A stretch of DNA of 64,000 bases. It comes from Eledone cirrhosa. Taxonomy: Eukaryota. The notes under the pieces were generated by a model. That model saw nothing but the letters and a program-made list of their open reading frames with translations. It was not told the DNA's origin and did not search any database. The translations under genes were made by a program, and so were the position numbers. Shown piece by piece: positions 5,661-27,266 of this stretch. The stretch lies in the NCBI GenBank assembly GCA_964016885.1, contig OZ024750.1, positions 21,328,001 through 21,392,000 on the forward strand. The letters run 5' to 3'. The first letter of the stretch is position 1. Each line of letters starts with the position of its first letter.

Positions 5661-6525
5661 ACCGGTCGATGGTCGGACGACATGCTTTGAAGCATAGAGT
5701 TACCTCTCTGTACGATCTGAGTTCAAATCCCGCCGAGGTTGACTTTGCCTTTCATCCTTACGGGGTCGATAAAATAAAAACCAGTAACGCACTGGGGTCG
5801 ATTTAATTGACTTTTCCCTCCCCCCAAATTACTGGCCTTGTGCCTATACTAGAAATTATTATTATTATAATTATTGGCGGATTGGCAATGTCGGTAGAGC
5901 GTCGGACAACATGCTTTGCAACATAGCTATGACCCTTTGCGTTCTGATTTCAAATCCCGCCGAGGTTAACTTTGCCTTTCATCCTTACGGGGTCGATAAA
6001 ATAAAGTGCCAGTACCAGGTTGATTAATCGACTCTTCCCTCCTCCAAAAATTGCTGGCCTTATGCCTAAAGTAGAAACAATTATTATTAATATTATTATT
6101 ATTGGCGGATTGGCAATATCGGTAGAGAGTCGGCCAACATGCTTTGCAGCACAGAGTTACGTCTCTTTACGGACTGGGTTCAAATCCCGCCAAGGTTAAC
6201 TTTGCCTTTCATCCTTTTGGGGTTGATAAAATAAAGTACCAGTCACGAACTGGGGTGGATTTGATCGACTTTCCCCTCCCCAAAATTGTTGGCCTTGTGC
6301 CTATATAAGAAACCATTATTATTATTATTATTGGCTGTATCGGTAAAGGATTCGACGCAATGCTTTGCAGCATAGAGTTACGGCCCTTACCATTCTGAGT
6401 TCAAATCCTGCCGAGGTTAACTTTGCTTTTTATCCTTACAGGGTCGATAAAATAAAATACCAGTAATACACTGGGATAATTGCTGGCCCTGTCCCAAAAG
6501 TAGAAACAATTGTTATTATTATCAT
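5661..6525 (+). mobile_element. Four head-to-tail copies of the tRNA-derived SINE
   Basis: B box plus body repeated at about 5720, 5950, 6180 and 6400; copies are diverged from each other and separated by (TTA)n tails. Confidence 0.9.

Positions 6526-21198: not shown

Positions 21199-21206
<8 letters not shown>
21074..21206 (+). repeat. Dispersed (TA)n-associated repeat, internally deleted copy
   Basis: tagtaataataataaatttgaagactaaaatccaaagagggctcga..ttcagaagatcccgttaagggtgaaag..ttaatctgttatttta; also at 43235-43360, 63298-63694 and partly at 32708-32758 (-). Confidence 0.85.
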
Positions 21207-22462
<1,256 letters not shown>

Positions 22463-24523
22463 TGAATATAGACATAGAATATTCGAAAATATTCTGTATG
22501 TTTATAATAAACATTTTGAAGACCTAATCGCTATAGAATAGAATACGTCACGTATTACAATTAGATTCTCGATAAAAGCAAGGGAAGTAATCTACGCGTT
22601 TCATTCTTGTTAGAAATCATCAGGACTACATATCCAGTGCTTTTATCGAGAATGACACAGCTAGAGACTTATAGAATACTTAGCTGTGTACAGGAACTGG
22701 TTTGAAAGAGCGGTTGCCGGTCCGGCAGAAATTAGAAATTGGAATAAATGCTCTGAAATAGCGATATATATGTGAATATAGACATAGAATATTCGAAAAT
22801 ATTCTGTATGTTTATAATAAACATTTTGAAGACCTAATCGCTATAGAATAGAATACGTCACGTATTACAATTAGATTCTCGATAAAAGCAAGGGAAGTAA
22901 TCTACGCGTTTCATTCTTGTTAGAAATCATCAGGACTACATATCCAGTGCTTTTATCGAGAATGACACAGCTAGAGACTTATAGAATACTTAGCTGTGTA
23001 CAGGAACTGGTTTGAAAGAGCGGTTGCCGGTCCGGCAGAAATTAGAAATTGGAATAAATGCTCTGAAATAGCGATATATATGTGAATATAGACATAGAAT
23101 ATTCGAAAATATTCTGTATGTTTATAATAAACATTTTGAAGACCTAATCGCTATAGAATAGAATACGTCACGTATTACAATTAGATTCTCGATAAAAGCA
23201 AGGGAAGTAATCTACGCGTTTCATTCTTGTTAGAAATCATCAGGACTACATATCCAGTGCTTTTATCGAGAATGACACAGCTAGAGACTTATAGAATACT
23301 TAGCTGTGTACAGGAACTGGTTTGAAAGAGCGGTTGCCGGTCCGGCAGAAATTAGAAATTGGAATAAATGCTCTGAAATAGCGATATATATGTGAATATA
23401 GACATAGAATATTCAAAAATATTCTGTATGTTTATAATAAACATTTTGAAGACCTAATCGCTATAGAATAGAATACGTCACGTATTACAATTAGATTCTC
23501 GATAAAAGCAAGGGAAGTAATCTACGCGTTTCATTCTTGTTAGAAATCATCAGGACTACATATCCAGTGCTTTTATCGAGAATGACACAGCTAGAGACTT
23601 ATAGAATACTTAGCTGTGTACAGGAACTGGTTTGAAAGAGCGGTTGCCGGTCCGGCAGAAATTAGAAATTGGAATAAATGCTCTGAAATAGCGATATATA
23701 TGTGAATATAGACATAGAATATTCGAAAATATTCTGTATGTTTATAATAAACATTTTGAAGACCTAATCGCTATAGAATAGAATACGTCACGTATTACAA
23801 TTAGATTCTCGATAAAAGCAAGGGAAGTAATCTACGCGTTTCATTCTTGTTAGAAATCATCAGGACTACATATCCAGTGCTTTTATCGAGAATGACACAG
23901 CTAGAGACTTATAGAATACTTAGCTGTGTACAGGAACTGGTTTGAAAGAGCGGTTGCCGGTCCGGCAGAAATTAGAAATTGGAATAAATGCTCTGAAATA
24001 GCGATATATATGTGAATATAGACATAGAATATTCGAAAATATTCTGTATGTTTATAATAAACATTTTGAAGACCTAATCGCTATAGAATAGAATACGTCA
24101 CGTATTACAATTAGATTCTCGATAAAAGCAAGGGAAGTAATCTACGCGTTTCATTCTTGTTAGAAATCATCAGGACTACATATCCAGTGCTTTTATCGAG
24201 AATGACACAGCTAGAGACTTATAGAATACTTAGCTGTGTACAGGAACTGGTTTGAAAGAGCGGTTGCCGGTCCGGCAGAAATTAGAAATTGGAATAAATG
24301 CTCTGAAATAGCGATATATATGTGAATATAGACATAGAATATTCGAAAATATTCTGTATGTTTATAATAAACATTTTGAAGACCTAATCGCTATAGAATA
24401 GAATACGTCACGTATTACAATTAGATTCTCGATAAAAGCAAGGGAAGTAATCTACGCGTTTCATTCTTGTTAGAAATCATCAGGACTACATATCCAGTGC
24501 TTTTATCGAGAATGACACAGCTA
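22463..24523 (-). mobile_element. Retrozyme-like tandem array, left block: about 6.6 copies of a 310-bp monomer, 7 hammerheads on - strand
   Basis: gacatagaatattc recurs at 22471, 22781, 23091, 23401, 23711, 24021, 24331; hammerheads at 22587-22629 and every +310 to 24447-24489. Confidence 0.9.
22587..22629 (-). ncRNA. Minimal type I hammerhead (first of 7 minus-strand copies)
   Basis: Minus strand: gtagtc-CTGATGA-tttct(aaca)agaat-GAAA-cgcg-TA-gattac. Confidence 0.87.
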
Positions 24524-26804
24524 TTCTATAGCGATTAGGTCTTCAAAATGTTTATTATAAACATACAGAATATTTTCGAATATTCTATGTCTATATTCAC
24601 ATATATATCGCTATTTCAGAGCATTTATTCCAATTTCTAATTTCTGCCGGACCGGCAACCGCTCTTTCAAACCAGTTCCTGTACACAGCTAAGTATTCTA
24701 TAAGTCTCTAGCTGTGTCATTCTCGATAAAAGCACTGGATATGTAGTCCTGATGATTTCTAACAAGAATGAAACGCGTAGATTACTTCCCTTGCTTTTAT
24801 CGAGAATCTAATTGTAATACGTGACGTATTCTATTCTATAGCGATTAGGTCTTCAAAATGTTTATTATAAACATACAGAATATTTTCGAATATTCTATGT
24901 CTATATTCACATATATATCGCTATTTCAGAGCATTTATTCCAATTTCTAATTTCTGCCGGACCGGCAACCGCTCTTTCAAACCAGTTCCTGTACACAGCT
25001 AAGTATTCTATAAGTCTCTAGCTGTGTCATTCTCGATAAAAGCACTGGATATGTAGTCCTGATGATTTCTAACAAGAATGAAACGCGTAGATTACTTCCC
25101 TTGCTTTTATCGAGAATCTAATTGTAATACGTGACGTATTCTATTCTATAGCGATTAGGTCTTCAAAATGTTTATTATAAACATACAGAATATTTTCGAA
25201 TATTCTATGTCTATATTCACATATATATCGCTATTTCAGAGCATTTATTCCAATTTCTAATTTCTGCCGGACCGGCAACCGCTCTTTCAAACCAGTTCCT
25301 GTACACAGCTAAGTATTCTATAAGTCTCTAGCTGTGTCATTCTCGATAAAAGCACTGGATATGTAGTCCTGATGATTTCTAACAAGAATGAAACGCGTAG
25401 ATTACTTCCCTTGCTTTTATCGAGAATCTAATTGTAATACGTGACGTATTCTATTCTATAGCGATTAGGTCTTCAAAATGTTTATTATAAACATACAGAA
25501 TATTTTCGAATATTCTATGTCTATATTCACATATATATCGCTATTTCAGAGCATTTATTCCAATTTCTAATTTCTGCCGGACCGGCAACCGCTCTTTCAA
25601 ACCAGTTCCTGTACACAGCTAAGTATTCTATAAGTCTCTAGCTGTGTCATTCTCGATAAAAGCACTGGATATGTAGTCCTGATGATTTCTAACAAGAATG
25701 AAACGCGTAGATTACTTCCCTTGCTTTTATCGAGAATCTAATTGTAATACGTGACGTATTCTATTCTATAGCGATTAGGTCTTCAAAATGTTTATTATAA
25801 ACATACAGAATATTTTCGAATATTCTATGTCTATATTCACATATATATCGCTATTTCAGAGCATTTATTCCAATTTCTAATTTCTGCCGGACCGGCAACC
25901 GCTCTTTCAAACCAGTTCCTGTACACAGCTAAGTATTCTATAAGTCTCTAGCTGTGTCATTCTCGATAAAAGCACTGGATATGTAGTCCTGATGATTTCT
26001 AACAAGAATGAAACGCGTAGATTACTTCCCTTGCTTTTATCGAGAATCTAATTGTAATACGTGACGTATTCTATTCTATAGCGATTAGGTCTTCAAAATG
26101 TTTATTATAAACATACAGAATATTTTCGAATATTCTATGTCTATATTCACATATATATCGCTATTTCAGAGCATCTATTCCAATTTCTAATTTCTGCCGG
26201 ACCGGCAACCGCTCTTTCAAACCAGTTCCTGTACACAGCTAAGTATTCTATAAGTCTCTAGCTGTGTCATTCTCGATAAAAGCACTGGATATGTAGTCCT
26301 GATGATTTCTAACAAGAATGAAACGCGTAGATTACTTCCCTTGCTTTTATCGAGAATCTAATTGTAATACGTGACGTATTCTATTCTATAGCGATTAGGT
26401 CTTCAAAATGTTTATTATAAACATACAGAATATTTTCGAATATTCTATGTCTATATTCACATATATATCGCTATTTCAGAGCATTTATTCCAATTTCTAA
26501 TTTCTGCCGGACCGGCAACCGCTCTTTCAAACCAGTTCCTGTACACAGCTAAGTATTCTATAAGTCTCTAGCTGTGTCATTCTCGATAAAAGCACTGGAT
26601 ATGTAGTCCTGATGATTTCTAACAAGAATGAAACGCGTAGATTACTTCCCTTGCTTTTATCGAGAATCTAATTGTAATACGTGACGTATTCTATTCTATA
26701 GCGTTTAGGTCTTCAAAATGTTTATTATAAACATACAGAATATTTTCGAATATTCTATGTCTATATTCACATATATATCGCTATTTCAGAGCATTTATTC
26801 CAAT
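24521..26804 (+). mobile_element. Retrozyme-like tandem array, right block (inverted): about 7.4 copies of the same 310-bp monomer, 7 hammerheads on + strand
   Basis: Reverse complement of the left-block monomer; hammerheads at 24743, 25053, 25363, 25673, 25983, 26293, 26603 (43 nt each). Confidence 0.9.
24743..24785 (+). ncRNA. Minimal type I hammerhead (first of 7 plus-strand copies)
   Basis: gtagtc-CTGATGA-tttct(aaca)agaat-GAAA-cgcg-TA-gattac; stem I gtagtc/gattac, stem II ttct/agaa, palindromic CGCG stem III, GUA triplet; enclosed by the 16-bp IR attctcgataaaagca/tgcttttatcgagaat. Confidence 0.87.

Positions 26805-27266
<462 letters not shown>

Follow-up and report, generated by a model that had tools for sequence, protein, structure and literature searches.

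Two-armed insertions of a 310-bp hammerhead repeat in Eledone cirrhosa suggest Penelope-type priming at two sites of a single, probably circular, RNA

The window, a 64,000-nt stretch of the Eledone cirrhosa genome, contains two tandem arrays of one 310-bp unit flanked by (TA)n tracts, which, judged from the assembly, are a genuine young two-armed insertion. Our preferred reading, to which we assign a probability of roughly 0.6, is that an animal non-LTR retrozyme was inserted by two-site priming of the Penelope-like element (PLE) type at a (TA)n break, on one RNA that was probably a monomer circle. New here are two measured regularities, one end of each of two types (T and S) and one haplotype per insertion, implying a single, probably circular, template; the class of element and the PLE footprint were already known.

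Structure of the two-armed insertion

Features of the locus are listed in Table 1, where monomer position 1 is the base just 3′ of the predicted hammerhead cut. The arms (left 2061 bp, right 2284 bp) meet 5′-to-5′ with their sense 3′ ends facing outward into (TA)n, and only three single-base differences were found within them. A first-pass annotation of the window had described this head-to-head inversion at a shared CTA, with blocks of 2.06 and 2.28 kb that are non-integer multiples of the unit and with ends and junction off the ribozyme cut site, all of which the present coordinates bear out: the four ends lie at monomer positions 130 (or 139 with one mismatch tolerated) and 165 on the outside and at 240 and 52 on the inside, none of them at the predicted cut. 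Its remark on different phases holds for the arms, which do differ in phase; the outer phases, however, are not arbitrary and keep a fixed 35-nt offset throughout the family. It was also right that the flanks keep the same CATATC orientation, which it had held against a fold-back: the motif occurs five times in the left and nine times in the right tract, and its reverse complement GATATG in neither. No poly(A) was found at this insertion, and a target-site duplication would be illegible within (TA)n flanks. The 35-nt junction sequence has one occurrence in the 3.0-Gb assembly. By itself the 3-bp overlap is weak, because random joints of the 310-bp monomer reach at least 3 bp in 6.7% of cases, and it becomes significant only across the family.

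Table 1 Features of the two-armed insertion in the window
Feature	Position in window	Strand	Remarks
Left (TA)n target tract	21204..22462	.	CATATC interruptions, orientation as in right tract
Left arm, 6.6 tandem copies of 310-bp monomer	22463..24523	-	Outer end 130, inner end 240
Left-arm outer (sense 3′) end, short 'S' end			Without tail, monomer position 130
Innermost of left arm's 7 type I hammerhead motifs	24447..24489	-	Motif read by hand
Inversion junction, CTA common to both arms	24521..24523	.	Single occurrence in assembly
Right arm, 7.4 tandem copies	24521..26804	+	Inner end 52, outer end 165
First of right arm's 7 type I hammerhead motifs	24743..24785	+	Predicted cut after 24779
35-bp PLE-type 'tail', monomer positions 131–165	26770..26804	+	Other insertion end without tail; cf. 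PMC8557442, PMC11167929
Right-arm outer (sense 3′) end, 'T' end			With tail, monomer position 165
Right (TA)n target tract	26805..27266	.

The monomer and its hammerhead motif

By the sequence criteria in use for animal non-LTR retrozymes (units of about 150–450 bp, GC content under 45–50%, no LTR or ORF), the element is one of them, with predicted self-cleavage: its period is 310 bp at ~34% GC and it is putatively ORF-less. The hammerhead layout, read by hand, comprises CTGATGA, stem II, GAAA, a palindromic stem III, a GUA cut and a 6-bp stem I. Fourteen intact type I motifs were counted in the window, one per unit, and an Rfam scan of the window returned nothing at gathering score. The monomer is predicted to fold stably as a circle (-67.8 kcal/mol versus -48.1 ± 4.9 for 100 shuffles, z = -4.0).

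Scored across the family against the unit of the window, the 33 fixed variants all spared the 12 core ribozyme bases, although 12 fell within the 43-nt motif, where about 3 of the 12 would be expected in the core at random (p about 0.02, calculated by hand). This hints that the copies passed on keep a working (predicted) ribozyme. Fixed variants concentrated at the variable positions of the ribozyme (monomer 2–3 and 276–295; 12/33 in 14% of the length), and several of these preserve or improve pairing.

Insertions of the family have one end of each type

Exact pattern matches across the assembly gave 4,177 copies of the 43-nt ribozyme, together with 1,220 T-type (165/167) and 1,253 S-type (130/139) ends joined to TA, and about 1,200 dispersed insertions of the 310-bp hammerhead unit in the genome. 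The first 218 Mb of C1 contain 94 T ends and 100 S ends, from which 63 divergent pairs arise, all of them T+S (63/63); no T+T or S+S pair was found in this region, where such pairs were countable.

A total of 91 loci were examined: the window, 12 loci selected by the ribozyme core, 56 from the list of paired ends and 22 at unpaired ends, out of 64 such ends not covered by the other sets (L114 was excluded as a duplicate of L060). Two arms were present at 82 of the 91, each pairing an outer end at ~130 with one at ~165 (82/82 T+S), so that a tail of ~35 bp stands at one end of every two-armed locus, and the loci chosen irrespective of their ends gave the same result (10/10 T+S). Most loci had been selected via end patterns containing TA; outer flanks were TA-rich also at the 12 loci selected by ribozyme core. 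A single arm was visible at nine loci. One of them (L106:602-712) apparently has a second arm of ~10 bp with a T end, and the one-armed class is thus perhaps overcounted. Arms ranged from less than one to 45 units, T and S arms did not differ significantly in length (p = 0.08), and lengths were fitted poorly by a pure exponential (p = 0.009) and adequately by a log-normal distribution. Related hammerhead repeats, 74–78% like parts of the monomer, were observed at L127:2449-2864, L156:97-205, L165:7591-7668 and L167:4216-4289; two of them run into TA at the point corresponding to position 165, which indicates that several related families exist.

Penelope-like elements as the likely source of the enzyme

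PLEs are described as leaving an inverted 5′-truncated copy at (TA)n targets, often with a 30–40 bp tail at one end only (available text of PMC8557442). According to the portion of PMC11167929 at hand, a PLE protein, a predicted dimer, cuts and extends both strands in vitro; reverse transcription begins at two neighbouring internal sites, one at each border of the tail, with no strand difference between start sites observed in bulk, and ribozyme cleavage is dispensable in vitro, uncut RNA being the main template.

The genome has many GIY-YIG elements with a reverse transcriptase (RT) and a C-terminal endonuclease, among them PLEs with open frames of 750–940 aa and the matching layout, whose cysteine linker points to the Neptune/Nematis type. 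In one PLE family, which bears a hammerhead-like motif, the two end types lie about 40 nt from each other; the first 69.5 Mb contain 100 of its S ends and 98 of its T ends, which form 52 divergent pairs, 52/52 of them T+S. PLE-like protein sequence was present in 11/11 long spans retrieved between PLE ends, three with frames of 752–784 aa; the frames of L186 and L187 measure 784 aa. From these pairs and protein-bearing spans it follows that the footprint of the retrozyme is the PLE footprint in this genome, and a borrowed PLE-type RT likely made the retrozyme insertions. No autonomous partner with a pseudo-LTR close to the monomer was seen among 44 loci that bear PLEs, taken from 150 scored GIY-YIG-bearing loci as the top 30 by score and a further 14 with long frames; the search gave only 74–78% matches to other small ribozyme repeats.

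Nine short two-armed PLE insertions of ~445 bp, picked by equal span (L170-L178, on C1), are joined at or beside the same 12-nt palindrome in 9/9 cases, occur in both T/S orders and share private variants between arms. The recurrent joint would mark either a preferred site of joining or a constant 5′ end of the RNA; retrozyme junctions, in contrast, are scattered.

Both arms share one haplotype

Among the 58 loci with at least two units in each arm, 55 had the same majority haplotype in both arms, compared with a mean of 8.5 and a maximum of 18 under permutation (23 haplotypes in total). In addition, 17 locus-private variants at 15 loci were present in every covering unit of both arms, as in L082, where 25/25 units carry the variant. 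Given this sharing, private variants included, one RNA probably templated both arms at each locus. Sporadic changes were rare (141 in 263 kb, and three in 845 crossings of the seam at the cut), and most were single rather than common to both arms.

Of the discordant loci, L098 probably reflects an alignment effect at the arm end, and L116 carries its variant in 7/7 S units but only in the inner two of six T units. Variants recurring in several units of L066, L036, L054 and L034b suggest that some long arrays later grew, were converted or were misassembled. The 45-unit arm of L066 (L066:510-14588) has two linked variants in nine units, a sign of later amplification or misassembly.

Junctions are distinct and rich in microhomology

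The 81 simple junctions analysed (L046, with a duplicated junction at 2127-2304, is counted among the 82 loci only) were all distinct (81/81). Filler sequence was present in 24, and of the 57 filler-free joints 37 had an overlap of at least 2 bp versus 18% by chance (p about 1e-14) and 21 an overlap of at least 3 bp versus the 6.7% expected. Priming from both target ends with joining by microhomology, as the first-pass annotation had suggested, agrees with this excess and with the T+S rule. Its call for a survey of other loci for inversions with variable phase was answered in part, in that junctions vary and outer ends are fixed; a junction identical at all loci, which it had named as fatal to its proposal, is contradicted by 81 distinct ones and by the uniqueness of the window's own.

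Clustering of junctions at the ribozyme cut was rejected, with 2 of 162 inner ends at most 5 nt from the cut versus 5.2 expected, so the arms are not run-off copies that stop at a cleaved 5′ terminus; inner-end phases were nearly uniform (Rayleigh p = 0.04). Junction symmetry was likewise rejected: 8 of 81 junctions lay within 15 nt of symmetry versus 8.1 expected, and since symmetric junctions are no commoner than chance, fold-back is excluded as the rule. At L036 (4099-4370), a 272-bp GC-richer foreign sequence was captured between the arms.

Circular and linear templates

The uniformity of the units and the absence of inner ends accumulating at the cut speak for a monomer circle, and a new variant fixed in all units of both arms would most simply have passed through one monomer. 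Alternatively, a circle may have given rise to a uniform linear concatemer, which then served as the immediate template. In the proposed sequence of events, array transcripts would self-cleave into monomers, which would then be ligated into circles; a PLE protein, probably a dimer, would bind the RNA and cut both (TA)n strands, one DNA end would be primed at each of two RNA sites 35 nt apart, and each RT would make several turns (about 7 in the window) before halting at an arbitrary point; the two cDNA ends would then be joined via 1–6 bp of microhomology or filler, with host repair finishing the insertion. The more specific version, in which a PLE dimer loads once on the 310-nt ribozyme-made circle and both RTs travel round it, displacing strands as they go, for as many as tens of turns, is put forward tentatively, at somewhat under even odds. 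If it were true, the arrays would document, at the level of the genome, that rolling-circle reverse transcription takes place in an animal, and the tail of PLEs would reflect how far apart the two active sites sit on one RNA.

The strongest alternative, which we regard as unlikely though deserving serious attention, is PLE two-site priming on a long linear multimer, produced by read-through of a uniform array or as an RNA-copied concatemer, with circles as a by-product or occasional bottleneck. In vitro, RNA that has not been cleaved serves as the main substrate (PMC11167929, in the text available), and autonomous PLE copies, presumably made from linear RNA, show the same T+S footprint. Two loci share variants in register from the outer ends: at L076 both arms (3 and 17.7 units) change haplotype once two turns, counted from outside, are complete, and at L063 one sporadic variant is common to both arms. 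No donor locus was found for the L076 junction, which is unique in the genome, and together with the switch in both arms this makes it probable that some templates were linear multimers; L076 itself fits a linear mixed multimer better than a monomer circle. However, templates drawn from arrays predict up to 42 variants shared in this way (an upper bound that assumes templates as varied as the arrays seen and counts later mutation and assembly error among sporadic changes), as opposed to the two loci observed. The 17 private variants fixed in all covering units would demand a single-monomer bottleneck at or shortly before each such insertion, inner ends do not pile up at the cut, and arms reach 19–45 units, whereas linear-only copying can only shorten arrays. 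The rolling circle of about 7 rounds on a circRNA envisaged in the first-pass annotation is retained in part: a single and probably circular template, with at least one locus, L076, departing from it.

Dual priming on two separate RNAs, alike in haplotype through one dominant source locus in the cell, we consider improbable. Such priming has been proposed for L1 (PMC2837659, available text), L116 is discordant between arms, and a haplotype match cannot separate one molecule from two identical ones. Yet T+T or S+S pairs would then be expected about half the time unless the complex is asymmetric, as against 0/63 for the retrozyme and 0/52 for the PLE family, and concordance at 55/58 loci is reached despite the 23 haplotypes.

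Slightly less probable still is that short two-armed insertions were later expanded and homogenised in DNA by unequal exchange, arm-to-arm conversion or fold-back copying. The repeated variants in L066, L036, L054 and L034b speak for it; the predominance of single sporadic variants confined to one arm and the asymmetric junctions speak against, and fold-back would yield identical outer ends. Long near-perfect palindromes in simple repeats are prone to fold-back and assembly artefacts, and no piece spanning the window junction was present among the pieces listed from public runs (307-bp junction stretch, four runs compared), but the unmirrored flanks, the asymmetric window junction, the fixed tail distinguishing the two ends at 82/82 loci and public-run contigs that show the S end joined to (TA)n plus the commonest variant leave an artefact very improbable.

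Comparison with known elements

Animal non-LTR retrozymes, as portrayed in the available parts of Cervera and de la Pena 2020 (PMC7229834) and Li, Clavereau and Pollet 2026 (bioRxiv 10.64898/2026.07.22.740005), resemble the present family in being ~300-bp low-GC non-coding tandem repeats with thousands of copies and one type I hammerhead per unit. Both papers propose circRNA-templated tandem cDNA and mobilisation by PLEs; a circle-by-PLE route was thus proposed earlier, and the fixed ends and matching arms suggest it here. In the present family, most insertions (82/91 loci) consist of two divergent arms, one with the fixed S and the other with the fixed T end. The word 'inverted' is absent from the searched text of PMC7229834, as are 'tail', 'junction' and 'priming' from that of bioRxiv 10.64898/2026.07.22.740005, and no description of two-armed retrozyme insertions was found in the accessible main texts searched.

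EN+ PLEs with a C-terminal GIY-YIG (Neptune/Nematis; Craig et al. 2021, PMC8557442; Frangieh et al. 2024, PMC11167929; both in the text available) likewise insert at (TA)n, leave an inverted 5′-truncated copy with a 30–40 bp tail confined to one end, carry a hammerhead upstream of two internal start sites and extend both target strands. The retrozyme differs in being putatively ORF-less and in having arms made of many exact turns of one 310-nt unit; moreover, the one-T-one-S and one-haplotype rules are measured here, whereas the tail pattern is qualitative in the accessible text of the two PLE papers.

L1 twin priming (PMC2837659, in the part available) shares the priming of both target strands on one RNA, the outward sense 3′ ends and the microhomology at the inner joint. 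There, the poly(A) end and an internal site serve for priming and an internal deletion is left. Here, poly(A) is absent, the two start sites are fixed and adjacent (~35 nt apart), the arms copy the same sequence and overlap fully with no internal deletion, the target is (TA)n and the two-armed form is the rule, not a variant. L1 twin priming, the precedent cited in the first-pass annotation, was consequently rejected as the mechanism in favour of that of PLEs.

The available text of PMC7229834, PMC8557442 and PMC11167929 treats as open both how retrozymes return to DNA and why PLE insertions carry a tail at only one of their ends alongside an inverted copy. In this respect, ~1,200 near-identical, haplotype-tagged insertions indicate that both ends probably use one RNA and one each of its two start sites, and the family offers candidate enzymes and, in its 310-nt unit, a template with which the copying of circular and of linear RNA could be compared directly. 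An RT able to integrate multi-kilobase cDNA copied from a small circle, working from both sides of a break that it makes itself, would interest developers of gene-writing tools.

Public sequencing runs and other observations

Most words of the stretch were contained in 20 public runs from 16 studies, none recorded as RNA. Of the four runs compared, X2 yielded 557 contigs, in which the commonest variant appears and the S end abuts TA, and X1 and X3 one closed 340-nt contig each (depth 10–12, without flanks). The monomer was present in runs of 17 organisms in 16 studies (compared with window 24200-24850 and 24402-24708), a spread that would seem better explained by traces of a very abundant repeat or RNA contaminating other samples than by the species having it in common.

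Elsewhere in the window, positions 5672-6465 hold ~3.5 diverged tandem copies of a 220–230 bp SINE-like repeat, which we take to resemble a cephalopod SINE.
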